A stretch of 60,072 nucleotides of DNA from an uncultured Candidatus Saccharibacteria bacterium (lineage in GTDB: Bacteria; Patescibacteriota; Minisyncoccia; Phycocordibacterales; DATGWK01). Position numbers and translations under genes: made by a program. The stretch spans positions 1 through 60,072 of the forward strand of contig CAYTZJ010000001.1 of the NCBI GenBank assembly GCA_964442475.1, given 5' to 3'. Positions within the stretch are counted from its first letter, which is position 1. Each line of letters starts with the position of its first letter. Below are positions 13,952 to 52,505 of this stretch, in pieces. The notes beneath the pieces were generated by a model that saw only the letters and a list, made by a program, of their open reading frames with translations, was not told the origin of the DNA and did no database searches.

Positions 13952-15109
13952 CTAAGAAAGTCTTAAGTTTCCTTGGGCCTCAATCACCGAACGATCCGAC
14001 ACACCATCCTTTTCATATCGAATATAGGCAGCGAGCGCAATCATGAGTGCGTTGTCAGTTGAAAGATTGGTCTCTGGAACAAGAAGTTTTACATCATCGA
14101 ACTCTGAAACTAATTGTTCAAATGATTTTCTAATTACCTGATTTGCAATTACCCCACCTGCAATAATCAACACCTTTGGATTATTTTTTTTAATAACGTG
14201 ACTGGTTTTTGTTACAAGCGTTTCAATAATAGCGTCCTCAAAAGCAACACAAACTTCTTTTTTTAGTTGTTCGTCGATCTCACGAACATCCCTTAGGGTA
14301 TATAAAACTGCCGTCTTTAGGCCTGAAAATGAAAAATCGTCATCCCCGCTTTTTAACATTGGTCGAGGAAAGTTGAAACGTGAAAAAATTCCTTCATCTC
14401 GAGCTTGTCTGGCATACTCAGCAACCTTTGGACCACCAGGATACGCCAAACCAAGCATACGTGCCACCTTGTCATATGCTTCACCCACAGCATCATCTCG
14501 GGTTTCGCCAAGAATTTTATATGAAAGCCAATCGTTAACCAACACAAGTTCTGTATGACCACCAGAGATAAGCAATGCAAGTGCTGGAAACCTTATAGGA
14601 CTACGAAGATTAAGCAATACAGAGGAAATATGACCCTCCATGTGATTAACGGGCATTACAGGAATACCCCATATTTCACCTAGAACCTTTGCGGCATTGA
14701 TTCCGACCCAAAGTGCCGGTTCAAGACCTGGACCATTAGTAACTGCGATTAAATCAATCTTTGGTTTCTGAACAGACTCAATAAAACTAATTATTCTTTC
14801 GGACAATTCTGGTTCCCGACTTAAATCAAGTTTAATTTTTTCTTTAATATCTGTTTCAAGATTATTTTTTTCATTCTTGAAATATAGGCCCGCTTCTTCA
14901 AAAGCCTTTTGAATAAGGGGTGCAAGGTTCTTTGAGTGTTCACGTTTAGCAAGATTTGGAAAAACACCTCCATATTGTTCATGGATTTTGATTTGAGATA
15001 AAACCAAACTCGAAAGCACGGTAAATGTGGGCTGAACTAAGCCACCCTCTGCTTCAATAATACTTACCGCTGTTTCATCACAGCTTGTTTCTATTGCTAA
15101 AATTTTCAT
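13952..15109 (-). CDS. tsaD: tRNA N6-adenosine threonylcarbamoyltransferase
   Basis: ETSCDET, HMEGH and SGGHTEL motifs. Start moved to MKILAIETS (ATG at 15109). Confidence 0.9.
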   Translation of the reverse strand: MKILAIETSCDETAVSIIEAEGGLVQPTFTVLSSLVLSQIKIHEQYGGVFPNLAKREHSKNLAPLIQKAFEEAGLYFKNEKNNLETDIKEKIKLDLSREPELSERIISFIESVQKPKIDLIAVTNGPGLEPALWVGINAAKVLGEIWGIPVMPVNHMEGHISSVLLNLRSPIRFPALALLISGGHTELVLVNDWLSYKILGETRDDAVGEAYDKVARMLGLAYPGGPKVAEYARQARDEGIFSRFNFPRPMLKSGDDDFSFSGLKTAVLYTLRDVREIDEQLKKEVCVAFEDAIIETLVTKTSHVIKKNNPKVLIIAGGVIANQVIRKSFEQLVSEFDDVKLLVPETNLSTDNALMIALAAYIRYEKDGVSDRSVIEAQGNLRLS

Positions 15110-15212
15110 AAATGTGCGAGATACCGGAATCGGACCGGTGTCTGATGCTTGGGAAGCATCCATTCTGCCACTAAACCAATCTCGCTAAAACATGTATACG
15201 AGCTAACGGGCA

Positions 15213-17686: not shown

Positions 17687-19372
17687 TTACACCTCGGGGT
17701 CGGGTCCGATTACAGGAATTGGAGCTTTCCAGAACTTACCATGCAAAGCAGTCATTGTTTCCCTAAGCTCCCTACTACCCAAGAGGGCGAGCACTATAAT
17801 ACCGCATATAATGCCCACTACACCAGCAATAGCGCCTTGGCTTAAAACACCAATAAATGTATCGAGTGTGAAGATATTTTGAAGTAAATTTAAACTAATG
17901 TACGTGGCCATACCCATAACCAAAGACACAAAAAGAAGTTGTAGTGTAGTTCGAATTAAGCTTTTTGCAACACCCTTGTAGTCTCTATTGAACATATACA
18001 CATGAACTAACGCGGCGGCAATACTACCGATTGAAAAAGCTAGTGGTAACATGAGCACTGTGGTTCCAGACACATCAGTGACCCTAAATAGAGCTTCAAC
18101 AAAATACTGAAATTGAGGAAAAGCGATTACAAAACGAGCCAAAAATGCTGCTGTAGCAATAATAACAAGTGCCGAACAAATGTTGATATAGAATGGAATT
18201 CTTGTATTGCCAGCTGCATATCGAGCGCGAGTAAAAACTAATATTAAACTCTGAGCAGCAAGAGAGATCACAAAAAGAGCAAGAGCGGCCGCTGTAAGAC
18301 GAGTATCCTGCCAACTAAATTCTCCAGAACCCAAAATAACTCGAACTATATGAGCGCGAAGTACAACAAAAAGTGCCACGAGTGGTAATGAAAAGAAAAT
18401 AATATATCGAGCTGTGGTATCAACCAATTCAACAAATTTTGTTCTTTCCCCTCGCGCAAACAAAACTGCCATGGAAGGAAATGCGGCTAAGGAATAACTC
18501 ACTCCAACAACAGAAAGTGGTACAGATTGAAGATTCCAGGAAAGACTAAGAATAGAAATTGAACCTGCACTCATAAGTGAGGCGAGTGAAATAAGAAAAA
18601 ATTCACTTACTTCTTGAGCAGACATTGCGAGCGTTCGTGGAAACGCAACAACAAACATTCCAAAGGCAGTTCGATATTTTTTAAACGAAAAAATAATTCT
18701 AGGAAATAAACCCTGTCGCGCCACAAACGGAACTTGAACTAAAAAATGAAGAACTGCTCCAATTGCCACTCCCCACACCAAACCGGCCGAACCAAAACGT
18801 GGAGCCAAAAAAACAATACCAAAAATAATTCCAGCATTATACAAAAGTGGACTAATGCCATAAATAAAGAATCTGTTGTACAGCTGAGTTACACTTGCAA
18901 TTAAATTCGACAAACCAAGCATAATTGGCGACAACAACAAAATCCTTGTAAGAAGAATAATTTCACTTCGGAATGGTTCTTCAGAAAAACCCGGGAAAAT
19001 TTTTGCCACAAACAATGGAAAAAGAAAAAAGATTATGGCCGAAATTGTTACCATAACAATAAGAAAAATTGAAAACACAACACTCAAAAATTCTCGTCCA
19101 ACATTTTTACTTATTTTTACCCGCTCAGAAAGAAACGGGATTATAATCGAAGCCGAAAAAAGAGACGCAACGACAGCAAAAAGAAAATCTGGAACACGAA
19201 ACGCAGCGTAATACAAATCGAGTGCCTGACTTGCTCCAAAGGTATGAGCAAGTAATCTGTCTCGGACTAAAGCCAAAACCTGAGACATGAGGGCAAATGC
19301 ACCCAAAAGATACGCGGCATCGTGCAGACCACTAATTTCCCTACCCAAAAAACTAATAAATTTCTTTACCAT
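17687..19372 (-). CDS. murJ: Lipid II flippase MurJ/MviN
   Basis: 561-aa polytopic membrane protein with MviN-like N-terminus. TAATG overlap with the upstream gene. Confidence 0.8.
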   Translation of the reverse strand: MVKKFISFLGREISGLHDAAYLLGAFALMSQVLALVRDRLLAHTFGASQALDLYYAAFRVPDFLFAVVASLFSASIIIPFLSERVKISKNVGREFLSVVFSIFLIVMVTISAIIFFLFPLFVAKIFPGFSEEPFRSEIILLTRILLLSPIMLGLSNLIASVTQLYNRFFIYGISPLLYNAGIIFGIVFLAPRFGSAGLVWGVAIGAVLHFLVQVPFVARQGLFPRIIFSFKKYRTAFGMFVVAFPRTLAMSAQEVSEFFLISLASLMSAGSISILSLSWNLQSVPLSVVGVSYSLAAFPSMAVLFARGERTKFVELVDTTARYIIFFSLPLVALFVVLRAHIVRVILGSGEFSWQDTRLTAAALALFVISLAAQSLILVFTRARYAAGNTRIPFYINICSALVIIATAAFLARFVIAFPQFQYFVEALFRVTDVSGTTVLMLPLAFSIGSIAAALVHVYMFNRDYKGVAKSLIRTTLQLLFVSLVMGMATYISLNLLQNIFTLDTFIGVLSQGAIAGVVGIICGIIVLALLGSRELRETMTALHGKFWKAPIPVIGPDPEV

Positions 19373-21780
19373 TAGTTAGACTCAGTAATTGGTAAATCTT
19401 TTCGCTTTTCAGGTTTGGCATCCTTAGAAGGCGCTGCTACAAATGGCGCCCTGCCAGCCTTAAGATTTTCGAGAATTGCATTTAGCTCTGAATTGTTTGG
19501 ATTTAAATCCTTGAGTTCTTCAAAAATTTTAATCGCCTTTGCTGTTTCGCCCGCATTTGCATAACTTAAACCAAGAAAATATTTAGCATTTGCATAGACC
19601 GGTACAAGCGATATTGATTTTTCGAATGCAGCAACAGCACCTCGATATTCCTTTGCATCATACTTTAGAAGACCGAGTCTAAAGAAAATCAATGGATCAT
19701 CGGGGGTAAGAGTAACAATCTGTTCAACACGTTTGATCGCAGCACTTAGGTTGCCTTGTGTGGCGTCAAGTTGCGCCTGAAAAAATATTGCGTCGATATA
19801 ATTACCCTTAAATTCTAGTGATTGATTCAAATATTCTTGAGCAGTCTTAAGATCTTTATTGGATGCAGCAAGTTGAGCCAGAGCAAGATACACTTGTGGG
19901 TTTCGTGGACTAATCTTATTAGCTTCTTCATAACCAGTCTTTGCAGCCTCATAAGCACCCTCAACACCAACTGGCACAATCGTGCTATATACCTGAGCAA
20001 CAATTAATTTATTTTCAAGACGTGATGGATCAGAAAGCTCAGCAAGACGCGCAGCCTCTACTGCACTTGCAGTTCGTTTCTGAAACTCGTTTCTTTGTTC
20101 TTCTGTTATTTCAGTCTTACCATTTGCTTCGGCAATTAACGTATTAATCCTTGATACATTAAGTTGTGCCAGAGATCTATAATAAATATCCCGTTTTGAT
20201 AATCGAATAGCATCAAGAATTTTTGCTTCGACAATATTTGCATCAGCATTTTGAGTTACTGAAACAATCGCTCTTTGGAAAGATACTGATGCTCGACCCT
20301 GTTCAAAAATAATATAACTCAAACCCACAGTAGCAATAAGCACAATGACACCGATCATTGTTGCGATAAAGCCGATCTTTGGATATTTAATAAATTCAAA
20401 TGATTTATTAAGTGTAATACCTGCAACCGCCGTCGAAGCCATAAACAAGCCGGTAAAAAAGAATGTCAAAAACAGAATCACGGTTCCTGGGGTGTAGAAA
20501 ATATTCATAATCCACAAATAGACAACGACACCAAGTGAGGATGTAACAAAAAATCGTGTTGATCTATCTGTATAGCTTGAAAATAAAGACTTAATGCCAA
20601 GCCAAACAATAGACATCAAGAAGAGTAGCCACGCAAACAGTCCCACTATACCGGTTTCAATAATAGAGGTTGGAACAAAACCAATAGCAAAATCAAAATT
20701 TGTATTCCAAAAATTTGTAAGATTGATATTAGGTCGGTACATCTGCCACGCAACACTAAAACGATTTGGACCGGTTCCGAGCACAGGATCTACCTGCAAA
20801 TTAGATTTAAAAACATCATATGTTGCCTCCCATGATGGACGAATCTCGATATTACTAACTCCAAATCGCGCACCTAGATTTGAAGCAAGATCACCACCAA
20901 GCGGCAAAACAAAGACAAGTGCAATAATCGAAATTATAAGAGACTTGATAGCAATTCGATGACGAGGCATTTCGAGTCGTCCGTCAGCAGTTAATTCCAG
21001 GGTTCCAGAAATTCTTTCTGCAACAGCAGTCGAGTGAGCTGCAGTATAAACAAAAAAGATAGCGGCAACAATTCCCGCAACAATCCACATTGTTGAAAAA
21101 TTAACAACGATCATCACAAAAAGCGATAAAAACAAAACCACATACGCCACAGCTTTTTCAACCTTTTTGAGCTTCAAGATTTCAAGAGCGAAGAGCGAAA
21201 GCAACAAACTCACTCCAAAAAAGATCCCGAGCTCATTCAATTTTCCAATCGTATTGGCGGTTATTGATGTAAAAAAACCAATTGATAGAAATTTTGTACC
21301 CAATAAAAATCGTAACGCATGAAAAATACCGAGTAAACCAGCGCCTACAAAAAATATCGCATTAACGACATACAATTTTTTTAGATTTGAAAAAGAAATA
21401 GAAACAAGATATGTAAGCACCATCATGATAAGAACGAATGAAAAAGTGCCAACCTCAAAACCATAGCCGACCAAAGAACCAATTCGAGAAGTGCTTACAA
21501 GTGATGAAATCAGTATCACAACAACCAAACCCACCGATGTTGCCGCTAATACATTTCTCGGGAAAAAAACTGTTCCACGTTTTATGATCGCGAGAATAGT
21601 GAGTATAAATGCAAAAAGTACGCCGAGTGAGATAACAAGTGCCTTGAGATACACAAATGACAAAAATGGAGATGGGCTGAATGCAATTGGCACCAAAACA
21701 AGAAGAATTGTAAGCAAAACGAGAGGTAAATTATCTAATGTTATGAGTTTGCGGAGTACCTGCAATTTATTTAAAATCAT
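19372..21780 (-). CDS. O-antigen-ligase-like (Wzy_C) polytopic membrane protein with C-terminal TPR repeats
   Basis: About 12 TM helices followed by TPR-like repeats. Start moved to Met48 (ATG 21780) because the upstream ORF part overlaps a terminator and rnpB. Confidence 0.65.
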   Translation of the reverse strand: MILNKLQVLRKLITLDNLPLVLLTILLVLVPIAFSPSPFLSFVYLKALVISLGVLFAFILTILAIIKRGTVFFPRNVLAATSVGLVVVILISSLVSTSRIGSLVGYGFEVGTFSFVLIMMVLTYLVSISFSNLKKLYVVNAIFFVGAGLLGIFHALRFLLGTKFLSIGFFTSITANTIGKLNELGIFFGVSLLLSLFALEILKLKKVEKAVAYVVLFLSLFVMIVVNFSTMWIVAGIVAAIFFVYTAAHSTAVAERISGTLELTADGRLEMPRHRIAIKSLIISIIALVFVLPLGGDLASNLGARFGVSNIEIRPSWEATYDVFKSNLQVDPVLGTGPNRFSVAWQMYRPNINLTNFWNTNFDFAIGFVPTSIIETGIVGLFAWLLFLMSIVWLGIKSLFSSYTDRSTRFFVTSSLGVVVYLWIMNIFYTPGTVILFLTFFFTGLFMASTAVAGITLNKSFEFIKYPKIGFIATMIGVIVLIATVGLSYIIFEQGRASVSFQRAIVSVTQNADANIVEAKILDAIRLSKRDIYYRSLAQLNVSRINTLIAEANGKTEITEEQRNEFQKRTASAVEAARLAELSDPSRLENKLIVAQVYSTIVPVGVEGAYEAAKTGYEEANKISPRNPQVYLALAQLAASNKDLKTAQEYLNQSLEFKGNYIDAIFFQAQLDATQGNLSAAIKRVEQIVTLTPDDPLIFFRLGLLKYDAKEYRGAVAAFEKSISLVPVYANAKYFLGLSYANAGETAKAIKIFEELKDLNPNNSELNAILENLKAGRAPFVAAPSKDAKPEKRKDLPITESN

Positions 21781-21852
21781 GCTTACTTTGATGAAATAAT
21801 ATACAGCTATTATCTCAATTTTACCGAGTATTTTCAATCGATCTCTCAACAC

Positions 21853-21877
21853 AAAACCCCGCTTTAGGCGGGGTTTT
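21853..21877 (-). terminator. Intrinsic terminator downstream of rnpB
   Basis: Minus strand reads AAAACCCCGC ctaaa GCGGGGTTTT. Confidence 0.75.
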
Positions 21878-21884
21878 GTAATTT

Positions 21885-22302
21885 GTGTTTCTGGGTCTAT
21901 AAGCCGAATTCTGTCCAGCAAAGCTCCGTGAGGAGCAAAGCGTGGATAACTATTTATCTAGCCCCGTGATTACTCTCGGGGTCAAGCGGCACACTCACAA
22001 CCTTTCGGTTCGAGTCCGGCCTTGCACACAAGTAAGGATTTAGCCGTTGCAACCGATACGTTACCGTACCGACTCATCCCGCGTGGCTTTCAAAGAAAAC
22101 CATGGGAGCTGTAGTTCTTTCGTTCTACAGCGTCTCTGTTCGCACCTCGTGGATCACTCCAGACGGGCGTTACCCGCTACCCTTCCAATTTTGCCCATCG
22201 CAGGTGATGCAAAATTGGTATGTGTTCGGACTTTCCTCCAAACGTCTCCATTTCGCCCCTTGGGCTATACAAGACGATGGCAGTTATCCAACCCAGAACA
22301 AA
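21885..22302 (-). ncRNA. rnpB: RNase P RNA (bacterial type)
   Basis: Minus strand contains GGAGGAAAGUCCGAACAC (CR-I, plus-strand 22224-22240) and GGACAGAAUUCGGCUUAUAG (CR-V, plus-strand about 21898-21917). P1 pairing joins UUCUGGGU (5') to ACCCAGAA (3'). Confidence 0.85.
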
Positions 22303-22335: not shown

Positions 22336-25300
22336 CTACGGCTGGGTTGAGCCACTATCATTAGAAACATCAGCTGAGTCTGAGTCTGAGTCTGAGTCTG
22401 CAGAATTTTCTGAACGGTCTGAAACACTGTTTCCATTATCGCGTGAAGGTTCAACTTGGGTTTGTGCGTCTTGATCTGAATCATTTGAAACATCAGTTTG
22501 TGGAGAATTCTTTACATCATTTTTTAAATCTCCAGCAACCCCATCGATAAACGAAACGTCTAAAGTGGCCGAAACATCATGTGCAGTGTCACCCGTCGTT
22601 GGAATACTTGGTGCAACAGGCTCAGCATCGCGTCCGTCATTAGGAATTTCCTCATTAGAGTTTTGTCCACATTCGCCAGCAAAATTCTTAAGTTTACCCT
22701 TAATAATTTTTACACAATACGGTTTCCCAGTCGCTTCGTCATAAAGTGTGATACCTGTTGGCTTTTCTGAACTACCAACGATAAGCTCTCCAACTAAAAC
22801 ATTTTTAAACTTGGCAACTGACTCAGAAAATGAAATACCAAAATCTTCGAGAGTTTGGAACGGATTTGACCAAAGTCCGCCACCACCATTCCCAATACGA
22901 ATCTGTGATTCAACCGCAGCAAGTCGTTCCTCGATAGAATCGAGTCGCAACTGTTGCGCCTTTGCGACACCGAGATTAAAGACGGAAAGTTTATACACAT
23001 CAACATCACCGTTTGCAGTAAGAATTTCGCTTGGAGCATCGCTCGCCAAAATTCCAAGTCGATTTGGGGTGCCTGTTTCATCGTTAAATCTAAAGGTTGA
23101 AATATCAATTTCAGTAAGCTTGTTTGCAAAGGCAACTAAATCTTCTTCTTGGAGTTTATTAACATTTGTAATGTCATCTTGGTCTGCCTTAGCCACAAAA
23201 CCTCGTGCTCCAACATCACCAGAGACTTGAAGTTTGTACAACGAATCATTTACACCAATTCCAACATTTCCAGAAGTATTAATTGTGAGTGAAGGAGATG
23301 TTGTCGGCGCATCATTAATAGAGATTCTTTGAGCAATTTCCTGGACTGATTTAACAGTGTCAGAAAGAATTGCTCGAACGTTGATATTTACCTCTCTACC
23401 AGCTTCGTTATACAACGCATATCGAGGATCTACTTGAGACACGTCTTCGGCAATAAAACCAATATCTCTTTTACCATTGTAATATCCTGGCTTGTAGTTA
23501 AATTCTACGGGATTGAGACTCATCAATCGTTCAAGGGATGACTGACCATCAAGTGCACTTATATTTTCCTTTACAGTACGAGTTGAAGAATCACATGTTG
23601 TTCCCCAAAGAAGATAGTGTCTAGTTGCATCAGTTTTTATACATGCAAAATATTCACCCCCCCCAGCTTCGACGAGATTATCGAATGCATAATGATACGT
23701 ACTTGAATCATCGATCGTAAGAAGTGCGGCATTACCAGCACCATTAACATCACCAAGCTGGATCACTCCTGTTGAATCATTAGAACTTGCATCAATTAAT
23801 ACCGCACCACCACTTGAACCCAAGGATGTTCCATTAAGATCAATAGTATAGTTTGGAGTCAAAGTATTAAAACCTAGGGAACCGTTACTAGCAACTACAA
23901 ATGTTGAACTATTTGTATTAATAACAAATGCAGGAGTAGTATCGTTATTTTGGATGGACAATCTAGCGAAGGGTGATGTTGTACCCACTCCAACTTTTCC
24001 ATTTCCAAGAACATTAAAGAGTGTTGCGTTTGTAGAGCTTGCTACTGCAAAGAGAGAGGTTGAGCCAGCAGAAGAAGTTGTTTGGACTGATAGCTTTGAA
24101 AATGGCGAAGATGTGCCAACACCGACGTTACCCTCAACAATTAAACCGTTTGTTGGTGCAGCGATAGTGTCGTATGTAGTACCGTATGAACCGTTACCAG
24201 AAACAGAGAGTTTTGACGCTGGAGACTGTTCACTAATTCCAACAGATGAACTATTGATTGTAATTACTCGAGTACTTGCACCAGTACCCAAATCAAGACG
24301 TGAGCTTAAACCAACTCCACCCTCAATAAAGGCTTTTTGTGTACCGTTTTGTCTCAAACTAATGTTTGGAACCTGACTGTTTGAAGAATCGTTAATTGTT
24401 AGATTAACTGCTCCAGCATTCTCAATCGTTGCAGACCCCCCAGACACATGAAATTTTGATGTGGGTGCTGCGATGCCCACTCCAACGTTCCCGTTCTGCA
24501 ATGCATACAAACTAGACGCAGCAGTAAGGCCACCTGCAAATGTTGAAGTTGAAGTTGTCGTAAATGCACTAAAATAAGAAGATGCTGATTGCCCCGCCAC
24601 CGAAAAGTTCGTATAAGGCGAAGATGTACCCACCCCAACATTACCACTAGCCAAAATATTAAAAAGTGTTTGTTTTGTAGAACTTGCCACTGCAAAGAGA
24701 GATGTGGTTGCAGAAGCAGATGGGCCCTGTAACGAAAATCGTGAAAAAGGAGAACTCGTACCAAAACCAACCTTACCCTCAACAATTAATCCATCGGTAG
24801 GAGCATTTATGCTGCTATATGTATCTCCAATCGCCCCATTACCTTTTACCGACAACATTGAACCAGGCGTAATAAATCCTCCAATACCAACTGCAAGTGG
24901 ATTTGTAGCTGCATCAACATTTTTAATAAAAATTCCCGGAGCATTTAGTGACCCACCATACTGCCAATTTAAATCATTATCAAAAATAGCAATTTGTTGA
25001 GTACCGTAAACAGAATCGTGTGCCCAAATACCAGTCTCATTACCCGCTCCAACACTATCATTGGCTGTTCCAGCATAAAGTCTTGCTGTTCCGCCTGTTG
25101 GGTCACCTAAATATGCCCCAGTACCCCACACATCAAGAGAAACTTCTGGAGATGAAGTGCCAATACCAACATATCCACTTGAACCATCAACTACAAGACC
25201 AGTTAAACCGTCATTTGTCCCATAAAAGAATTTATCAGTACCAGTCATATACGCAGAAATAAGCCTGTCATCATTGGTTATAAGACCAATTTCATCACCA

Positions 25301-26064
25301 ATTGAACCTGATGAAATAGCTGGACGAAAGGCACCTTGATATCCGCCAAGATAAGACAACGAACTATCAATATCGAGTGATGCGTTTGGTGTAGAAGTTC
25401 CAATTCCGACATATCCTGTCGAAAGAATACTGAATGCCGACAAACCACCGGTACCGAAAAATTCTGCAATCTTACCAGCACCATACTGTGCAACGCTCAA
25501 TGAAGTTGTAGCACTCGATGTTGCATTCGTACTGTCATTTCTAAAGAACTGTTCACTCGAAATACCATCGAGTCTGCCTGCTTCAAAAGCCGCTGGAACC
25601 GCCCCAAGAACTTTTCTTGGGCTCATTTCTCCGTCCCATAAAGGCGATCCACCAGAACCCCCAACTTCTACACCAAGGTAGAGTGTTTGATTAAAATCAA
25701 TATTTGTAAGCGGAGTTGAACTACCAAGCATGACGCTGAAAAGACCGTCAGTAACAGTAATGCGATTACCAGCAACAGTACTTCGATCTTCGGTCCAAAT
25801 TGCTGTGGTTGTTGCAGCAGTTGCAGAAGTCAAAAGCCAGAATTTCATATGATAAGTACCATCAGGCACAGCCACATTTGAAGCATTTGTGAGCTTACCT
25901 TGGTAATTAATTTGTGCATTAAAAGCCGCTTGTGCTACCAAGGGTGCACCAGCAGAAATGAAGCCATCAATTCCTACATGGCCTACCAAAACTACAACAA
26001 TGAGAGAAAATACCAAAAATGTTTTGGCTGTGAGAACTATTACTTTTTTTATTGTGTTTTTCAC
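22336..26064 (-). CDS. Tail-fibre-like giant surface protein with endosialidase-chaperone (peptidase S74)-like modules
   Basis: N-terminal TM. At least 9 degenerate repeats of the type (N/Y)VG(I/V)GT(S/T)SP...(L/F)-V. Module ENISALDGQSSLERLMSLNPVEFNYK...IGFIAEDV. A second, weaker module ISTFRFNDE...LGILASDAPSEIL. Coiled coil and an acidic SDSDSD tail. Confidence 0.7.
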   Translation of the reverse strand: MKNTIKKVIVLTAKTFLVFSLIVVVLVGHVGIDGFISAGAPLVAQAAFNAQINYQGKLTNASNVAVPDGTYHMKFWLLTSATAATTTAIWTEDRSTVAGNRITVTDGLFSVMLGSSTPLTNIDFNQTLYLGVEVGGSGGSPLWDGEMSPRKVLGAVPAAFEAGRLDGISSEQFFRNDSTNATSSATTSLSVAQYGAGKIAEFFGTGGLSAFSILSTGYVGIGTSTPNASLDIDSSLSYLGGYQGAFRPAISSGSIGDEIGLITNDDRLISAYMTGTDKFFYGTNDGLTGLVVDGSSGYVGIGTSSPEVSLDVWGTGAYLGDPTGGTARLYAGTANDSVGAGNETGIWAHDSVYGTQQIAIFDNDLNWQYGGSLNAPGIFIKNVDAATNPLAVGIGGFITPGSMLSVKGNGAIGDTYSSINAPTDGLIVEGKVGFGTSSPFSRFSLQGPSASATTSLFAVASSTKQTLFNILASGNVGVGTSSPYTNFSVAGQSASSYFSAFTTTSTSTFAGGLTAASSLYALQNGNVGVGIAAPTSKFHVSGGSATIENAGAVNLTINDSSNSQVPNISLRQNGTQKAFIEGGVGLSSRLDLGTGASTRVITINSSSVGISEQSPASKLSVSGNGSYGTTYDTIAAPTNGLIVEGNVGVGTSSPFSKLSVQTTSSAGSTSLFAVASSTNATLFNVLGNGKVGVGTTSPFARLSIQNNDTTPAFVINTNSSTFVVASNGSLGFNTLTPNYTIDLNGTSLGSSGGAVLIDASSNDSTGVIQLGDVNGAGNAALLTIDDSSTYHYAFDNLVEAGGGEYFACIKTDATRHYLLWGTTCDSSTRTVKENISALDGQSSLERLMSLNPVEFNYKPGYYNGKRDIGFIAEDVSQVDPRYALYNEAGREVNINVRAILSDTVKSVQEIAQRISINDAPTTSPSLTINTSGNVGIGVNDSLYKLQVSGDVGARGFVAKADQDDITNVNKLQEEDLVAFANKLTEIDISTFRFNDETGTPNRLGILASDAPSEILTANGDVDVYKLSVFNLGVAKAQQLRLDSIEERLAAVESQIRIGNGGGGLWSNPFQTLEDFGISFSESVAKFKNVLVGELIVGSSEKPTGITLYDEATGKPYCVKIIKGKLKNFAGECGQNSNEEIPNDGRDAEPVAPSIPTTGDTAHDVSATLDVSFIDGVAGDLKNDVKNSPQTDVSNDSDQDAQTQVEPSRDNGNSVSDRSENSADSDSDSDSADVSNDSGSTQP

Positions 26065-26073
26065 AAAAAGTTT

Positions 26074-27645
26074 TTATTGAAGAACTACATTCTCTGGTTG
26101 GGTCATCTGTTGCTTGCGATGACGATGCGCAAGTACGAGAATCAAAGCAGACAAAAGAATCAAAAGAAACCAGAGATAATTGAATCGATTATCACCTTCA
26201 CTAAATACATCAGGAATCTTTGCAATGATTGCACCACTAAGTGAAGCGAGACCTTGATGTTTGTAATCAAGAATCGCTAACGCGAATTCATACTTACCTG
26301 GTCTTTCAAACGCTGCAAGATTTGCCTCATAGGCAGTCTTGTCTTTGTTTACCCGAAGAAGAAACGAAAATGTTTTATCTTTATCTTCTGGGTCATACAT
26401 CGTGATCGCAATTGTTTTTAAGATTTCTGGAATTTTGTCATAGTCGATCGAAATCGTCAGACTTCTGTCGCCACGAACCTCAACAGTTCCTGAAACAATT
26501 GGTTTTTTTACTCCGTCCTGAATAAAATTAAGATCCCAGATTGAGAGCGACTTAAGCAATGGATCGATCAGATCAGAAGGGAGTTTGAGAATGTCAGCAA
26601 ACAACTGAGGTGAACCTGAACCGGTACCATCGAGAGACAACCTAATATCTGTGACCGAACCGGATGAATAATTTCCTACGAAATCTTTAGCAAATGCTGA
26701 GTAGTAATATGTCTTACCCGGTTCAACATTGCGATCTGTAAATTCTTCTGCTCGCCCTTCATAAATCACCTCGCCTTCACTTGGATCTCTTGGATAGAAG
26801 ATTGGAGATTTAACAATTCTTACTGATTCAAAATCAGTGTGAGGATTACGCCATGTAAGCAACACGTTGCCGTTCTTTTCTGTTGCTTTTAAATTTGTAA
26901 CGTTCTCTGGCGGATTAGAATCTGGAAGCGATAAGGTGTAGAAATCCTGATTGTCTATTACTCGTTTTCTTTCATAACCATCTACAAGCTCAATTTTGAA
27001 GAAATAATGTGTACCCGGCACAAGATCTGTGAGACGAATGACATGATCTTTTTTATAAAGATCACTTGCAAGACTGCCCACTTCAAAATCTTGAGTTTTG
27101 CCCCACCACACGAGAGCTCGCACAGGCACATTCGTTCCAAAGCTAATCAATGCTTCATTAAAGTCAGGTGCCACATTGAGATACAAAAGCGTAATCACTT
27201 GCTGGCCGCTTGTAGTACCACCGCCAACTGGAGTTGATACTGGAACATCAAATGTTGTAGCGGTTGATGAAGCAGAACGTGCAGATTCATTGTTTGCAGC
27301 ATCGATTGCAGAAACGGTATAGGTGTATGCGGTGTTTGGAGTCAAACCCGTATCAGAATAAGTCGTAGCTCCTCCTGATAATCCAATATAATTGTTGTCA
27401 CGAAACACTCGATAATCCGTGACAGCCGTATCGTCTGTTGAAGCAGTCCATGAAAGATCAATTTGGCTTGTTGAAACGGCAGTCGCGCTTAAATCTGTTG
27501 GTACAGAAGGCGCTATAAGGTCCGGCGTATCGTCGATAAGTTGAGAGACGATAAACTGATCTTCTGCTGCATGTGCATATGAATACGCAAAAACAACAAA
27601 AGTGATGATTGTGAGACTTATAGCAATGAACTTAATGATTTTCAT
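26074..27645 (-). CDS. Fibronectin type III domain surface protein, C-terminally anchored
   Basis: Signal peptide. FN3 signature PTDLSATAVSTSQIDLSWTAS...YRVFRD...TAYTYTVSAIDAANNES. C-terminal TM helix followed by HRHRKQQ. Confidence 0.75.
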   Translation of the reverse strand: MKIIKFIAISLTIITFVVFAYSYAHAAEDQFIVSQLIDDTPDLIAPSVPTDLSATAVSTSQIDLSWTASTDDTAVTDYRVFRDNNYIGLSGGATTYSDTGLTPNTAYTYTVSAIDAANNESARSASSTATTFDVPVSTPVGGGTTSGQQVITLLYLNVAPDFNEALISFGTNVPVRALVWWGKTQDFEVGSLASDLYKKDHVIRLTDLVPGTHYFFKIELVDGYERKRVIDNQDFYTLSLPDSNPPENVTNLKATEKNGNVLLTWRNPHTDFESVRIVKSPIFYPRDPSEGEVIYEGRAEEFTDRNVEPGKTYYYSAFAKDFVGNYSSGSVTDIRLSLDGTGSGSPQLFADILKLPSDLIDPLLKSLSIWDLNFIQDGVKKPIVSGTVEVRGDRSLTISIDYDKIPEILKTIAITMYDPEDKDKTFSFLLRVNKDKTAYEANLAAFERPGKYEFALAILDYKHQGLASLSGAIIAKIPDVFSEGDNRFNYLWFLLILLSALILVLAHRHRKQQMTQPENVVLQ

Positions 27646-27656
27646 ATGAACTGTAC

Positions 27657-28436
27657 CTAAAGAGTCACTGCGGTTAGGGTCGTGGTAGCAACATACGTAT
27701 CTTCGAGTTTAAAGCTCGAAGTTCCAACCGTAACTCGAAACTTAATTGTTGTTATCGTTCCAGACGGATGATTCGATGAACTGCGAGACGCAATTGTTTG
27801 ATTCGTCGTACTGAGTCCATCCCAACATTTGTCAGCAGAATCAGTGCCAGTAACTGAGCCACATGATCCCAACTCGTCCAAAAAGTCTGAAACAATATCT
27901 GATCCTTCCGGTGAAAATCCAAAACGTGCTTCGTCTGCTGGAACTGTGAAGTCATAGTCTGGAAATCCAGATGGCGCATAATCCGCAATCGTGTCAGAGG
28001 TTGTGTTGCCCTGCATTGCTGGACTCGAACTCGCCTTTATATAGAGTGCGTAACCAGATGGACTATCAGTCACAACCGTCACCGCGGTTGAACCATTTGA
28101 TGTGCCGCCAGTGATACCACCAAGCGAAGGACTCATTGCAACATCATCAGCCACATCATCAAATGCAATATATGTCTCGTGCATTTGCTGATAACCAGCA
28201 TGGAGTTTGTAGCTTGTACTATTTGAATCTCCAGTAGCAACTTCACCGCCCGTGCTTTCCAAACGATAACTTGCAGACTCACTCAAACCTCCACCAAAAT
28301 TCAAACTGTCACTTTCAATTTTGTAGTTTGAGCTCGACATTCCAACGGCAGACACCCAATCTACATTGCTAGCCAAAGCAAGAACCAAAAAGGTAGCGAC
28401 GATACTTATACCAATTGAGTTCTTAATGGTTTTCAT
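27657..28436 (-). CDS. Secreted beta-rich surface protein, paralog A (WxL-like?)
   Basis: Signal peptide and SxNYxxES repeats. Shares a block SPSLGGITGGTSNG..V.V.T....SGY...IKASSSPAMQ and a CW-GLST...Y-ATTTLTA C-terminus with ORF 29407..30075. Confidence 0.55.
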   Translation of the reverse strand: MKTIKNSIGISIVATFLVLALASNVDWVSAVGMSSSNYKIESDSLNFGGGLSESASYRLESTGGEVATGDSNSTSYKLHAGYQQMHETYIAFDDVADDVAMSPSLGGITGGTSNGSTAVTVVTDSPSGYALYIKASSSPAMQGNTTSDTIADYAPSGFPDYDFTVPADEARFGFSPEGSDIVSDFLDELGSCGSVTGTDSADKCWDGLSTTNQTIASRSSSNHPSGTITTIKFRVTVGTSSFKLEDTYVATTTLTAVTL

Positions 28437-28440
28437 TTTT

Positions 28441-29397
28441 CTATTTCTTCTTTATTTCGAATCTTGTGACGACAAACCGCAAAGCAAGAATCAAAACAAA
28501 AACAGTAGCAAGAACACCGAGTGCGATTTTCCAAGGAATGACCCAAAAAGAAATCTGCATCGTATCAACAATGTCTCCATAGCCTCTATTAATAGAAGCA
28601 ACGGCAGTATATCGACCGAACAAAAACGGACGATTCCATGAAATTTCCCTTAATCGCACAGACTGTGGCAAGGAAAACCACGGATCAACCTCAACAAACC
28701 CAACCTCTTGCCCGAGAATATTTTTGATTCTAATTTCACCATACGGATTAACGTACACAGAACCATTATTCTCATAAAGAAGTCGCATACCGATCGGACC
28801 GCTACCATAGAATTTTTGTCCTTCTACAGTACTGAAACCCGAAAGTCGACCTTCTTCATTAACTGGACCTGGAACTTTGACAAAGAACAACACACCGAGA
28901 CGAGAAACAATTGCTGCTGATTGTGGGCTTGTGGCCTCACGTTCTGTTGTACTCACAAGTACACTGCCGTAGTGTCCTCCTGGATCTACATCGGTTGGCA
29001 CATTAACAGTGACCGGAATTGTCGCTTTTTGACCATTTTCAAGCTCGAACGTAGACGATTCAAACTTCAAAAAATCTTTGAGCGAATATGGTCCACGATC
29101 ATCACCCAAAAGAACGATTGCTTCATTTGGATTTCTCGAACCAGTAAAATCTTCTACTTCGAGATGAAAAACTCTTTTTCCACCTGTTCGGTTTGAAACT
29201 GTAATAGCGGTTGTTTTACTTTCACCAGCCGCAATTTCAATTTCTATCTTTCCGGGTCCAACCACAAAATCCTGATACTGTATATTTGCAACATCGATAC
29301 TCTCAACCTTATACGCGGCAGATGCAGAAATTGGCACAAAAAACGCAATTATCAGACTTAGAGCAACTATGATTTTGGAATATCTGTTTAGGTTCAT
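28441..29397 (-). CDS. DUF916/DUF3324-like cell-surface protein with C-terminal TM anchor
   Basis: Signal peptide, two beta-sandwich-like halves (VPTDVDPGGHYGSVLVS; NNGSVYVNPYGEIRIKN), and a C-terminal TM helix plus basic tail. The architecture is recalled from Firmicute WxL/Csc clusters. Confidence 0.45.
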   Translation of the reverse strand: MNLNRYSKIIVALSLIIAFFVPISASAAYKVESIDVANIQYQDFVVGPGKIEIEIAAGESKTTAITVSNRTGGKRVFHLEVEDFTGSRNPNEAIVLLGDDRGPYSLKDFLKFESSTFELENGQKATIPVTVNVPTDVDPGGHYGSVLVSTTEREATSPQSAAIVSRLGVLFFVKVPGPVNEEGRLSGFSTVEGQKFYGSGPIGMRLLYENNGSVYVNPYGEIRIKNILGQEVGFVEVDPWFSLPQSVRLREISWNRPFLFGRYTAVASINRGYGDIVDTMQISFWVIPWKIALGVLATVFVLILALRFVVTRFEIKKK

Positions 29398-29406
29398 GTT
29401 GAAATA

Positions 29407-30075
29407 TTAATTGGTTGTTGCAGTAAGGGTTGTGGTTGCCTTATAGACACCCTCTGTAATAAGCGAACCAGAATTGATAGTGAGCTTAAAGGCAATTGAC
29501 GACGTTGACCCAGACGCCGAAGTTGCTGTTGTTCGAAATATTGTTGATGTTGCCGTGGTCGAAAGACCATACCAACACGAGCCCATACCTCCGGTATCAG
29601 CAGAACCGGTGTTGCAAGTTGACGCACCATCATCCTTGAATTTTTGTGCCAAATCAGCAGTTGTACTTGCCGAAACGCTATAGCCGAACTCCGCACCAGC
29701 AGGAACAGAGTAAGCAAAATCCGGAACACCAGCAGCTGCAGGAGTGTAATCAGGAATAGAATCTGTTGATGTATCATCTTGCATCGCTGGACTCGAACTT
29801 GCCTTGATCGTCATGGTGTAACCAGACGAATCGTTAGTCAGTACAACAACTGTAGTTGTACCGTTTGAGGTACCACCAGTGATACCACCAAGTGACGGTG
29901 TCATCGTCACATCCTGTGCTGTTGTAGCGAAGGAAATTTCAGATGTAATCGTCTGACTGACTATGAATTGATCCTCAATTGCAAGACCCAACGCAGGCTC
30001 AGCGATGACAAAAATCAACGCAAACGCCATTGTTAGGACAACCGCACCGAGGAAAGAATCTTTTAATTTTTTCAT
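29407..30075 (-). CDS. Secreted beta-rich surface protein, paralog B (WxL-like?)
   Basis: Signal peptide, EDQFIVSQ motif after the predicted cleavage site, and conserved blocks shared with 27657..28436. Confidence 0.55.
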   Translation of the reverse strand: MKKLKDSFLGAVVLTMAFALIFVIAEPALGLAIEDQFIVSQTITSEISFATTAQDVTMTPSLGGITGGTSNGTTTVVVLTNDSSGYTMTIKASSSPAMQDDTSTDSIPDYTPAAAGVPDFAYSVPAGAEFGYSVSASTTADLAQKFKDDGASTCNTGSADTGGMGSCWYGLSTTATSTIFRTTATSASGSTSSIAFKLTINSGSLITEGVYKATTTLTATTN

Positions 30076-30123
30076 GTTAATAAATTAATGCTACTAATCT
30101 CCACAATAAACGCATTCGGGCTT

Positions 30124-31113
30124 TTAAGGTTCTTCACCATCCTTAACTGGAACCATTACGTATAAATATTCTTGATCGTTTTTGTTTTTGAAGACTGGTT
30201 TGATCAAACCAGAAGTTCCTGTTTCGTCAGGAACGATTTTAGCTTCATCTGAAAAATTATTTTCTACGTACGCCTTAACATGCGCATTAGCATCAGGTGA
30301 ACCAGCAGATGGAACAACTACCAAACCGGATTCATCGCTTTTCTCGTTCTGCTGTGACCAGAAAAACGGTCGACCAATTTTTTGTCCTGTTACTGCAATA
30401 AAACTATTGACTCTCGTGATTCTGATTTGTGTCCCATTCACTAGATCAGAAATTTGTTGATCGAGATACATACCAATCGACGAGAATACATGTGACGTAT
30501 ATGCAACTGAACTCACAAGTTCAGATCGATAATTTTTAATGTGTACCAAAGAACCAGAGATTTGATTTTGAACAGCACTTATTTGGACACCACCCAAATT
30601 AATGTGCGATAGAAAATTTGATTTCTGATTGCCACCAATAACATTTGGCACAACAAAAACTAAAAGCAACACGACCACCAAAACACCACCAACAATTCTT
30701 TGAGCAAATACACTCGTTTGACGCTTTGCTTCTTTTCTATCAAGAAAGTTAATAGCTGCCTGATGGAAAGACTTGTATGACAATTCAGGATTAATACCAA
30801 AACCAAGGGGGTTGGTAATCGAGTTCGACATTGTGGCTGCACCAGCCCCAGCAGAACTATTGAAATTACTAACCTCAGAATTCTTTTGATAAATCGAGAT
30901 TCGTCCACGTGGCGTCAAACTTGCAGTTGTTCGATGGGCAAGAAGGGATTCTTCGGAAACAAACCATGATCTACCGACACGTCGGCAATCAAGTAAACTT
31001 TTTCGGCACAACTGTCCGATATAATCGGAATTATAGCCAGTTATTGAACTAGCTCGGCTTGCCGAGATATATTTTTTTCCTTCAAAAATCAATTCACTAC
31101 CCATGCAAATCAT
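30124..31113 (-). CDS. Membrane-tethered helix-turn-helix protein
   Basis: N-terminal excisionase/MerR-like HTH (ISASRASSITGYNSDYIGQLCRKSLLDCRRVGRSWFV), one TM helix (IVGGVLVVVLLLVFVV), then an extracytoplasmic domain. The start is ambiguous: 31176, 31113 or 31104. Confidence 0.6.
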   Translation of the reverse strand: MICMGSELIFEGKKYISASRASSITGYNSDYIGQLCRKSLLDCRRVGRSWFVSEESLLAHRTTASLTPRGRISIYQKNSEVSNFNSSAGAGAATMSNSITNPLGFGINPELSYKSFHQAAINFLDRKEAKRQTSVFAQRIVGGVLVVVLLLVFVVPNVIGGNQKSNFLSHINLGGVQISAVQNQISGSLVHIKNYRSELVSSVAYTSHVFSSIGMYLDQQISDLVNGTQIRITRVNSFIAVTGQKIGRPFFWSQQNEKSDESGLVVVPSAGSPDANAHVKAYVENNFSDEAKIVPDETGTSGLIKPVFKNKNDQEYLYVMVPVKDGEEP

Positions 31114-31414
31114 TATATTTTTTAGTAACAATTTTTTTTCAAAATTTTGGGGATAAATCAAAGAAACTTTTTGCACTAAGGATCACATTAAAAACATGGA
31201 TAAACAGTCACCATGAGGCTTATATGAGGTCATAATCCAAAATTCAAAAAAGATTAAAACGGGAGTTAACTTTTCTCCCTAAACTAATCAGTCAAAACTC
31301 TTAGTTTTAGAAAAAGTTTAAAACCAAATAAAATTAAAATGGGGATTACAAAGATTGATAGTCGTTATAAAAACAGTTACACTTTTTATATATCATTAGT
31401 AAGGTTTATATAAG

Positions 31415-31651
31415 ATGAACATTGAATTTATAACGATTAAGCAAGCAGCAAAACTTCTCGGAGTTACGCCCCTAACTCTTCGTAATTGGGACAACAGTGG
31501 TAAGTTCACAGCGTCTCGCCACCCGATAAATAACTACAGAGTTTATAAAAAAGCTGAGGTTGAAATGCTTATTGAGGACATGAAGTCAAAACAGATAAAA
31601 ACAAAAATCAATAAGCGTCAACCATTCAAACTTCAGATACGCCATGAATAA
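31415..31651 (+). CDS. Small MerR/excisionase-type HTH DNA-binding protein
   Basis: ITIKQAAKLLGVTPLTLRNWDNSGKF...YRVYKKAEV; 78 aa. Confidence 0.7.
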   Translation: MNIEFITIKQAAKLLGVTPLTLRNWDNSGKFTASRHPINNYRVYKKAEVEMLIEDMKSKQIKTKINKRQPFKLQIRHE

Positions 31652-31682
31652 AAAATACCACCCGAAACGGGTGGTATTTTTT
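31651..31682. terminator. Bidirectional intrinsic terminator
   Basis: ATACCACCC gaaac GGGTGGTAT with A5 before and T6 after, between convergent genes. Confidence 0.8.
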
Positions 31683-31701
31683 AACGTTTTTTTGAACCCC
31701 T

Positions 31702-52400: not shown

Positions 52401-52505
52401 AGAACTGTTTACAGAAATTATATCAAAATGTAAAAGAAAAAGCCCCGACTTTAGCCAAACGGCTGAAATCGAAGCTTCCATTGTTTACGCTTTGGATATT
52501 GAGAG

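Follow-up and report, generated by a model that had tools for sequence, protein, structure and literature searches.

In chaperone-usher pili, a tip subunit that lacks a donor strand is followed by repeating subunits and a terminator, and in TapA/TasA fibers TapA serves as an anchor or nucleator carrying a look-alike donor strand. Bacteria of the candidate phyla radiation (CPR) have monoderm cells. In one of them, Candidatus Mycosynbacter amalyticus (Saccharimonadia), two filaments were determined by cryo-electron microscopy in the study that solved the Pam pilus (Troman et al., June 2026 preprint, bioRxiv 10.64898/2026.03.03.709456). Here we describe six consecutive minus-strand genes, g1 to g6, carried on a 60,072-nucleotide stretch of DNA deposited as an uncultured Candidatus Saccharibacteria bacterium (contig CAYTZJ010000001.1 of assembly GCA_964442475.1; hereafter the window). 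We read the core of this unit, g2-g3-g4-g5, as a donor-strand-exchange (DSE) pilus that a monoderm CPR bacterium would assemble with a chaperone but without an usher, and as a compact relative of Pam, with a probability that we put at roughly 0.7.

The Pam system provides the parts against which this locus can be compared. PamA and PamB (55 and 39 kDa) are two-domain pilins with a truncated immunoglobulin (Ig)-like domain and an N-terminal nine-strand sandwich, in which the inter-domain linker is the donor strand. PamC and PamD are PapD/FimC-like chaperones with a C-terminal transmembrane (TM) helix. PamT, a pilin of one domain that has no donor strand, was proposed to form the tip. PamR is RbmA-like and combines two fibronectin type III (FnIII) domains with an additional strand at the N-terminus and a TM helix at the C-terminus; it was proposed as terminator and anchor. 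A tail-fiber-like gene is a conserved neighbor of the pam operon (10.64898/2026.03.03.709456). The same preprint makes no mention of WxL or DUF916, which belong to a second system to be compared with our locus. In WxL clusters, the commonest arrangement is one WxLIP together with a pair of WxL proteins, and a DUF916 hairpin is predicted to insert into the WxL partner (PMC10599100).

In order of transcription, the unit comprises g1 (30124-31176), encoding a membrane-tethered HTH_17-like protein; g2 (29407-30075; 222 amino acids), a candidate shaft pilin; g3 (28441-29397; 318 amino acids), a candidate membrane-anchored chaperone; g4 (27657-28436; 259 amino acids), a PamT-like pilin paralog of g2 and candidate tip or cap subunit; g5 (26074-27645; 523 amino acids), a PamR-like terminator or anchor candidate; and g6 (22336-26064; 1242 amino acids), a tail-fiber-like giant surface protein. 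The open reading frame (ORF) map of the window reproduces the gaps of 48, 9, 4, 11 and 9 nt reported in an earlier, sequence-only reading of this DNA. That reading also placed a signal peptide or a TM helix in every product, which a hydropathy scan bears out: each of g2-g6 has an N-terminal signal peptide or anchor, and TM helices lie in the middle of g1 (residues 161-179) and at the C-termini of g3 (291-309) and g5 (488-506). Its statement that such an apparatus had not been characterized is overtaken by the 2026 preprint, which solves the related Pam pilus, and by the existence of an NCBIfam model for PamT, which g4 matches weakly.

g2 and g4 are paralogs with a pilin-like fold

The two small secreted proteins g2 and g4 are paralogous, as the sequence-only reading had recognized (45% identity over 175 amino acids, E=5e-40), and share a conserved cysteine pair. 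g2 consists of a signal peptide, an N-terminal strand and a single beta-sandwich that holds this pair (Cys154/Cys167). In its AlphaFold2 (AF2) model, which has a predicted local distance difference test score (pLDDT) of 77, the sandwich runs from residue 47 to the C-terminus. Foldseek comparison of this model with the PDB returned mostly donor-strand-complemented subunits, with CfaB as the best match (E=4.6e-4) and FimG, FimA, PapE, PapK, PapA, the pilin domain of PapG, CsuA/B, TasA and CanA among the structural neighbors. The scores are modest and the enrichment for such subunits is striking, and on this model the fold of g2 appears to be that of a chaperone-usher pilin. No significant match was found in a viral fold library. 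The likeness is one of fold only, and the Pfam families PapD_N/PapD_C and Fimbrial gave no match. Sequence searches of the PDB with g2, g4, g1 and g6 returned nothing, and the structures of PamA and PamB were recovered neither in the Foldseek list of g2 nor by sequence search. The g2 family comprises 399 clusters at E<=1e-3, and an exhaustive profile search found its domain in 671 representatives (50% identity clusters).

The candidate donor strand of g2 lies right after the signal-peptide cleavage site, at residues 33-45 (29941-29979, minus strand; IEDQFIVSQTITS). Hydrophobic residues alternate along it, and these positions rank among the most conserved of the family, with Q36 invariant and E34, F37, Q41 and T44 nearly so. 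In the monomer model, residues 31-46 lie outside the sandwich, have no strand assigned and reach a pLDDT of 59-72. A Glu-Pro pair inside the signal-peptide region (residues 26-27; 29995-30000, minus strand; FVxxEPxLxxA|IEDQF) is also invariant in the family. This pair is absent from g4 and g5 and unusual for a Sec signal peptide, and could be the sign of a particular step in cleavage or recognition.

g4 has a g2-type sandwich without the EDQF-type donor strand. At its N-terminus is a highly conserved module of about 50 residues (residues 33-85; 28182-28340, minus strand) with the motif SxNYxIxSDSxNFGGG...AGYQQM. g4 matches the NCBIfam model NF058579, "CPR-type pilus protein PamT", at E=4.8e-10 (39.3 bits, model positions 6-139 of 241), as do all 34 sampled members of the g4 family (best E=3e-14). 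All of these matches stay far below the 240-bit cutoff of the model, which indicates distant homology to PamT rather than equivalog membership. When every member of the two families of g3 and g2 was compared with NCBIfam, PamT was again the one Pam model to be matched.

The sequence-only reading had likened the cluster to WxL/Csc surface complexes, a comparison that holds for g3 (below) and fails for the two small paralogs, which are pilin-like. The Pfam WxL domain was found in 0 of 38 g2-family and 0 of 34 g4-family members even at E<=10. Both proteins lack the dual Trp-x-Leu motif: only one Trp is conserved in their mature forms, and it stands in the context C-W-x-G-L. Among the top 50 structural matches of g2, the WxL chain of 9i25 is absent. 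Membership of g2 and g4 in the WxL domain family was rejected on the Pfam results.

Longer proteins of 365-1,566 amino acids (P0386, P0411, P0413, P0419, P0453 and others) likewise carry the g2-type pilin domain, at their extreme C-terminus. The sampled long relatives match PamT below threshold, and in two of them (P0462, P0488) the N-terminal part matches a model of TafC, from haloarchaeal Tat fimbriae. These proteins look like two-domain pilins of the PamA/B type or tip adhesins, and the TafC matches hint at a remote link to archaeal strand-donation pili.

g3 is a homolog of the DUF916/WxLIP family with a chaperone-like fold

g3 encodes a signal peptide, two Ig-like beta-sandwich domains of the DUF916/WxLIP type and a C-terminal TM helix (28471-28527). 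The DUF916 likeness proposed for it stood up in sequence and structure. As a single sequence, g3 matches the Pfam family WxLIP_PGBD below threshold (E=6e-4), while the profile of its family (31 members) matches the solved EfmWxLIP1 of E. faecium (9i25, 9i1y) at E=5e-7. In the AF2 model of g3, with a pLDDT of 85.6, a signal helix precedes two beta-sandwiches and a C-terminal TM helix at residues 289-317, and WxLIP (9i1y/9i25) ranks first among its Foldseek matches in the PDB (E=4e-12), with 263-276 aligned columns that cover both domains. RbmA follows (5e-10 to 3e-7), and then CfaA, CsuC, EcpB, DraB and CupB2, which are chaperones of chaperone-usher pili (E=1e-8 to 1e-6).

g3 is thus a true homolog of the DUF916/WxLIP family. 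Clustered at 90% identity, its own family holds no fewer than 1,346 clusters, and some of these are named DUF916 or carry PF06030. g3 shows the WxLIP arrangement of DUF916, DUF3324 and a C-terminal TM helix. In architecture and fold it also shows the arrangement of PamC and PamD, a PapD/FimC-like chaperone followed by a C-terminal TM helix. The weak choice-of-anchor T matches returned when the g3 family was scanned against NCBIfam were not informative.

The four-gene core is conserved across Patescibacteria

A genome scan identified at least 136 relatives of g3 among species-level genomes, and by this count the core is conserved in at least 136 species of Patescibacteria, most of them from the large, uncultured Parcubacteria group. 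The best 80 loci were analyzed further. They all come from metagenome-assembled genomes (MAGs), and those with specific lineage names belong mainly to Paceibacteria, Kaiserbacteria, Zambryskiibacteria, Nomurabacteria, Falkowbacteria and other members of the Parcubacteria group; a few names are evidently wrong. The order g2-g3-g4-g5 is found in essentially every one of these loci with enough sequence. Without exception, complete loci carry a single gene of the g2 type and a single gene of the g4 type, both encoding short single-domain proteins, and in every locus the strictly co-conserved g3 is located between these two pilin genes. Many Patescibacteria genomes therefore carry these genes together, in keeping with the envelope-located, non-phage CPR apparatus that had been predicted. 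Current databases annotate the module only as hypothetical proteins. Some MAG records that contain it are labeled Candidatus Nanoarchaeia, Azotimanducaceae or Acidimicrobiales (L007, L020; P0092, P0124), and many bear the generic label "uncultured Candidatus Saccharibacteria"; the odd taxon labels are probably due to mis-binned contigs or automated names.

g2 and g5 share a genome-specific candidate donor strand

g5 had been described as an FnIII protein with a C-terminal anchor, and both features are confirmed (Pfam fn3, E=4e-15; TM helix at 26128-26184, minus strand, residues 488-506). The protein has a signal peptide, about three fn3-type domains plus one further, unassigned domain and a basic cytoplasmic tail; its PHROG matches to phage fn3-bearing tail proteins reflect generic fn3. 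It has in common with PamR the combination of FnIII domains, an N-terminal strand and a C-terminal TM helix. The strand, AEDQFIVSQLI (residues 27-37; 27535-27567, minus strand), stands at the mature N-terminus and shares the core EDQFIVSQ with the strand of g2, while the remainder of g5 is unrelated to g2.

We compared this strand between genomes by taking the best ungapped 9-mer match of the g2 strand within the first 120 residues of g5, with g5 drawn either from the same genome or from another one, over 5,000 permutations. The input was the 80 loci of species-representative genomes plus five metagenomic loci, from which 54 non-redundant genomes were scored. Same-genome pairs reached a mean score of 24.1 versus 19.9 for different-genome pairs, 0 of the 5,000 permutations attaining the observed mean, and a shuffled-strand control gave 15.8 +/- 3.4. 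The match falls at around positions 20-28 of g5, immediately behind the signal peptide. Lineage-specific variants change together in the two proteins, as in the g2/g5 pairs EDQFTVKQ/EDQFTVKQ, YDQFTISQT/YDSFTVSQT, AEDQFEIHQ/VEDTFEVHQ, SQFTETLVI/SQFTTTLTI and TDTFEVTQQ/TDDFTVTQQ.

The two motifs split before the genomes diverged, so that drift alone would give equal similarity within and between genomes; the same-genome excess therefore points to a shared constraint. The simplest reading of these sequences is that one acceptor groove takes both strands, that of g2 and that of g5.

The same test showed no sharing of the g2 strand with g4 (13.2 versus 13.7) and no signal for g3 (17.6 versus 17.6). 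For the N-termini of the giant proteins that neighbor the core, same-genome pairs scored 14.5 and different-genome pairs 14.0, a difference reached by 901 of 5,000 permutations. Donor strands on g4, on g3 and on the giant neighbor were accordingly rejected by the test that is positive for g5.

A compact, usher-less pilus as the proposed function

Homologies, folds, topology, synteny and strand co-variation are the observations behind the pilus interpretation, and from them we infer polymerization, subunit order, chaperone activity and a role in host attachment. In the assembly that we propose, all components, in keeping with their signal peptides, would be exported by Sec. g3 would act like PapD, FimC or PamC/D, binding newly exported pilins at the membrane, completing their incomplete Ig fold and passing them on. 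g4 would start the fiber as distal acceptor, its place at the tip following from the lack of a donor strand, without which it could only accept one. g2 would be the polymerizing subunit, its N-terminal IEDQFIVSQTITS strand entering the groove of the preceding subunit. Entry of the g5 strand into the last g2 would then end growth and tie the filament to the membrane through the fn3 spacers and the TM helix, as was proposed for PamR, and g1 possibly regulates the unit.

By analogy, the parts encoded by g2-g6 would map one-to-one onto the published pam operon, with pilins, a TM-anchored chaperone, an FnIII and TM anchor and a tail-fiber-like neighbor. Both systems belong to CPR bacteria and are, for the present locus by prediction, Sec-exported and usher-less; g3 corresponds to the TM-held chaperone, g5 to the anchor and g4 to the PamT-type pilin. 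They differ in that the shaft pilin g2 is a single-domain protein of 222 amino acids with its donor strand at the very N-terminus, whereas the strand of PamA/B is an internal linker. There is one chaperone here versus two, and there are two pilin genes versus PamA/B/E/T. g5 has about three fn3-type domains and an extra domain where PamR has two FnIII domains, and a helix-turn-helix (HTH)/TM gene, g1, heads the operon. No ATP-synthase, CorB or major facilitator superfamily gene is present among the annotated window genes, and the hosts are members of the Parcubacteria group rather than Saccharimonadia/Microgenomatia. Two-domain major pilins of the PamA/B type are absent from the window and from the complete loci, such relatives existing elsewhere in the sequence library. 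Strict membership in Pam thus fails, the PamT match being below cutoff, two-domain major pilins missing and no ATP-synthase gene standing among the annotated window genes.

Chaperone-usher pili (Pap, Fim, CFA/I, Csu) resemble the proposed system in their subunit fold, in a strand carried on an N-terminal extension as in PapA and FimA, in the two-Ig-domain fold of the chaperone, and in the logic of tip, repeat and terminator. Unlike them, this system has no outer membrane to cross, its chaperone g3 is membrane-tethered, and its candidate terminator g5 is a TM-anchored fn3 protein and not a PapH-like pilin. The annotated genes of the window and of the sampled related loci, which are a part of all ORFs, include no usher-like gene.

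Flanking members g1 and g6

g1 had been read as a membrane-tethered HTH protein. Its TM helix was recovered, while the HTH is detectable at the family level only (HTH_17 in 8 of 18 orthologs in a per-member Pfam scan, best E=7e-7) and the start assigned to the gene probably needs correction: Met25 (coordinate 31104) is invariant among orthologs and probably the true start. The N-terminal, cytoplasmic HTH motif spans about 30937-31074 (minus strand), and a conserved extracytoplasmic C-terminal segment bears the motif Y..A..GY.DY.GQLCR..GR.W.V. A pairwise BLAST of the g1 N-terminus with the adjacent MerR protein was not significant, and a profile search against the PDB was uninformative. g1 is present only in the closer loci, here called type I, where it lies upstream of the core, and a role as membrane-bound regulator or sensor of the operon is plausible. 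Tandem duplicates of g1 (two copies of about 225-360 amino acids) occur in L003, L024, L025, L028, L032, L038, L048, L064 and L073.

The endosialidase-chaperone-like modules proposed for g6 came down to one. A Peptidase_S74 domain (PF13884) lies at residues 827-881 (23422-23586; E=1.4e-12, above gathering score) and is internal, not C-terminal; a second module was rejected (BLASTP E=2.9). Further features of g6 are a signal anchor at the N-terminus, five or more GNVGVGTSSP-type repeats and an Asp/Ser/Asn-rich tail, and the protein matches PHROG tail-fiber families (E=8e-16). It has no pilin domain, and the PDB sequence search yielded no solved relative.

What surrounds the core varies between loci. 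The type I neighborhood consists of Obg, GatB, a divergent MerR gene, g1, the core, an S74-type giant fiber, a tetratricopeptide repeat (TPR) membrane protein and MurJ. In the type II neighborhood, the core is immediately preceded by one or two giants (1,300-3,000 amino acids, with LamG/LVIVD or no Pfam domain), and central-metabolism genes lie downstream of it. A conserved trio among these downstream genes was considered as functional partners and rejected, the genes being GAPDH, RpiB and Rpe. Of the 66 loci whose flanks extend over at least 4 kb, 40 have an ORF of at least 800 amino acids as one of the two genes closest to the core on one or the other side, with family and side of the giant differing from locus to locus.

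The coupling to a tail-fiber-type protein asserted in the sequence-only reading is accordingly one of adjacency: g6 has no donor strand, and the family of the giant differs in distant relatives. Incorporation of g6 into the pilus is not supported. g6 is probably a co-located trimeric fiber with an S74 intramolecular chaperone that stands outside the strand code, and it and the unrelated giants at the same position elsewhere are probably lineage-specific adhesins or fibers that are expressed along with the pilus and joined to it neither covalently nor by DSE. The phage-derived feature of the cluster is the fold type of g6 only.

Transcription and genomic context

The stretch after g6 is not an empty spacer and is, over 415 nt, the RNase P RNA gene rnpB (21884-22299, minus strand), which lies directly downstream of g6 on the same strand and is followed by a putative strong terminator. 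The RNA is full-length and divergent; its score of 91.7 bits against RF00010 (E=1.4e-28) is below the gathering score of 100, and a gathering-threshold scan did not report the gene. A GC-rich palindromic hairpin (21851-21879) closes the unit after rnpB as a putative terminator, and a second one (31649-31683) lies upstream of g1, past the divergent MerR gene. Both are consensus matches, with stems of 13 bp and 16 bp and T-runs after each. A scan for sigma-70 promoters found fewer sites than in shuffled sequence and none convincing upstream of g1. Gene spacing and the bracketing terminators suggest that g1-g6 would form a single transcript.

Among the annotated window genes, the unit is flanked on one side by TsaD, LepA, MurJ and a TPR/polytopic membrane protein and on the other by MerR, GatB, Obg, MYG1 and a P-type ATPase. 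With these housekeeping flanks, the statement that no capsid, terminase or integrase gene is nearby remains valid. GC content is even over the window and unremarkable.

The divergent gene next to g1 (31415-31651, plus strand) encodes a small MerR/HTH_17 protein of 78-80 amino acids that is kept at the same position in type I loci, including L001 and L005-L018, and is a candidate for a second regulator of the unit. Two further genes (19372-21921 and 42961-45162, both minus strand) encode large, polytopic membrane proteins whose C-termini carry TPR repeats, with a Wzy_C/O-antigen-ligase domain in addition in the latter. The former comes directly after the pilus unit in type I loci; its ORF has a TTG start and over-extends across the terminator, and a -35/-10-like site (21837..21809) suggests a later start, at about Met48. 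A VirD4/TrwB-like coupling ATPase (50607-52481, minus strand; TrwB_AAD_bind, T4SS-DNA_transf) sits among glycosyltransferase and Mur ligase genes and may belong to the type IV secretion/conjugation-like system of CPR bacteria that PMC12102498 discusses. Another large surface protein, of 1,122 amino acids (10523-13891, plus strand), is encoded some 8 kb away from the operon and has two Bact_surface_Ig-like domains (E=2e-42) and no pilin domain. Finally, tRNA-Gly(CCC) (15114-15185, minus strand) overlaps the 5' end of the longest TsaD ORF (13952-15163, minus strand), the start of which is therefore over-called.

Alternative explanations

The kinship of g3 with WxLIP raises the alternative of a non-filamentous complex of the WxL/Csc type, in which membrane-bound g3 would hold g2 and g4 at 1:1 or 1:2 by strand insertion and present them, or g6, as adhesins without polymerization. 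g3 is a WxLIP homolog in sequence and structure with the same architecture (signal peptide, two Ig domains, C-terminal TM helix), the commonest WxL cluster, one WxLIP with a pair of WxL proteins, mirrors g3 with its two secreted paralogs, and strand insertion between WxLIP and its WxL partner is indicated by AF2 and by 9i25. Yet the partners themselves do not fit, since g2 and g4 have neither a WxL domain nor the dual Trp-x-Leu motif, the fold of g2 is pilin-like and the WxL chain falls outside its top 50 matches. WxL complexes are moreover described as wall-bound and not filamentous, no LPXTG protein is found here, and they have no counterpart of an fn3 anchor that bears its partner's donor strand; such a complex would leave unexplained both the co-evolving g2 strand on g5 and the consistent PamT matches of g4. 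We regard it as unlikely, and the cluster is better read as a DSE pilus than as a wall complex because its subunits are pilin-like and one of them shares a co-varying strand with the fn3 anchor. Quite unlikely, in our view, is a filament that needs no chaperone, akin to TasA/TapA or to the archaeal ABP/Taf fibers, with g2 self-assembling outside the cell, g5 acting like TapA and g3 as a wall- or host-binding accessory. Those are monoderm or archaeal filaments built by donation of an N-terminal strand, in which an accessory protein mimics the donor strand, and the strand shared by g5 and g2 fits them as well as it fits chaperone-assisted DSE. The TasA fiber 8aur is the third-ranked structural match of g2, CanA is also among its matches, and some longer g2-domain relatives match haloarchaeal TafC. 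Such fibers need no Ig-fold chaperone and use SipW or Tat, whereas here g3 lies between both pilin genes in every locus and has a two-domain chaperone fold, with chaperones of chaperone-usher pili among its closest structural neighbors after WxLIP and RbmA. We found no SipW-type signal peptidase and no Peptidase_M73/TasA family signal, nor any sequence-family signal of TasA, ABP or Taf systems in g2-g5.

A different division of roles would make g6 the machine, a trimeric tail-fiber-like adhesin for which g2-g5 would serve as accessories of export, anchoring or display. The tight spacing, with g6 only 9 nt past g5, the giant ORF near the core in 40 of 66 loci and the conserved tail-fiber-like neighbor in the Pam preprint would all suit this. 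It is nonetheless the giant that changes, not being one family (S74; LamG/LVIVD; no Pfam domain) and switching sides, while g2-g5 are invariant, and the N-termini of g6 and its counterparts have no genome-specific donor strand (14.5 versus 14.0; 901/5000) and no pilin domain, which makes this explanation very improbable. We give next to no credence to a prophage remnant or a domesticated phage tail module. The matches of g6 to PHROG tail-fiber families and Peptidase_S74 and of g5 to phage fn3-bearing tail proteins could be taken in its favor, the latter being generic fn3. Capsid, terminase, baseplate and integrase genes are missing, the flanks (GatB, Obg, MurJ, LepA, TsaD, rnpB) are in conserved synteny across genomes, GC content is unremarkable and g2 has no significant viral fold match.

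The DSE pilus that we favor has its own difficulties. Its support comes from sequence, comparative genomics and monomer models, and no filament has been seen for this organism. The Foldseek matches of g2 are modest (best E=4.6e-4, TM-scores of 0.37-0.59) and come from a model of medium confidence (pLDDT 77), and the PamT match of g4, at about 39 bits against a cutoff of 240, covers about half of the model. PamA, B, C, D and R were compared by their published description. WxLIP, to which g3 is related and which has been solved, is presented in the literature as a wall-associated WxL-binding partner and not as an assembly chaperone (PMC10599100). The g2/g5 co-variation could be due to gene conversion, or to an interaction with g3, instead of a pilin groove, that both strands share, and the N-terminal module of g4 might self-complement its groove. 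The ATP-synthase neighborhood of the pam operons was also not seen among the annotated window genes.

Implications

Patescibacteria are mostly thought to live attached to other microbes, and their contact molecules are largely unknown outside a few cultured Saccharibacteria. Read as a minimal donor-strand pilus, the locus extends the Pam system to the Parcubacteria group, another major branch of the CPR. Relative to the literature searched, this extension is new, as are the minimal four-gene layout with its strand code and the sequence bridge between g3 and WxLIP/DUF916. The four proteins make up a testable assembly model, with a genome-specific strand code that is readable from sequence and common to the shaft pilin and the membrane anchor.

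The sequence link between g3 and WxLIP/DUF916 suggests a possible assembly principle in common between the WxL clusters of Firmicutes and the pili of CPR bacteria. Tentatively, and as a possibility that we hold well short of probable, Pam pili, the Parcubacteria four-gene module and Firmicutes WxL/Csc clusters may be branches of one ancient, monoderm-wide usher-less system whose hallmark is a membrane-anchored, two-Ig-domain donor-strand chaperone of the DUF916/WxLIP type. The four-gene module would then be its minimal form, with tip, shaft, anchor and chaperone, and episymbionts would use it to extend toward the host a giant adhesin that is specific to the lineage, be it g6 or one of its replacements. 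If this were true, WxLIP proteins would be pilus-type chaperones. The variable giant neighbors are obvious candidates for determinants of host specificity.

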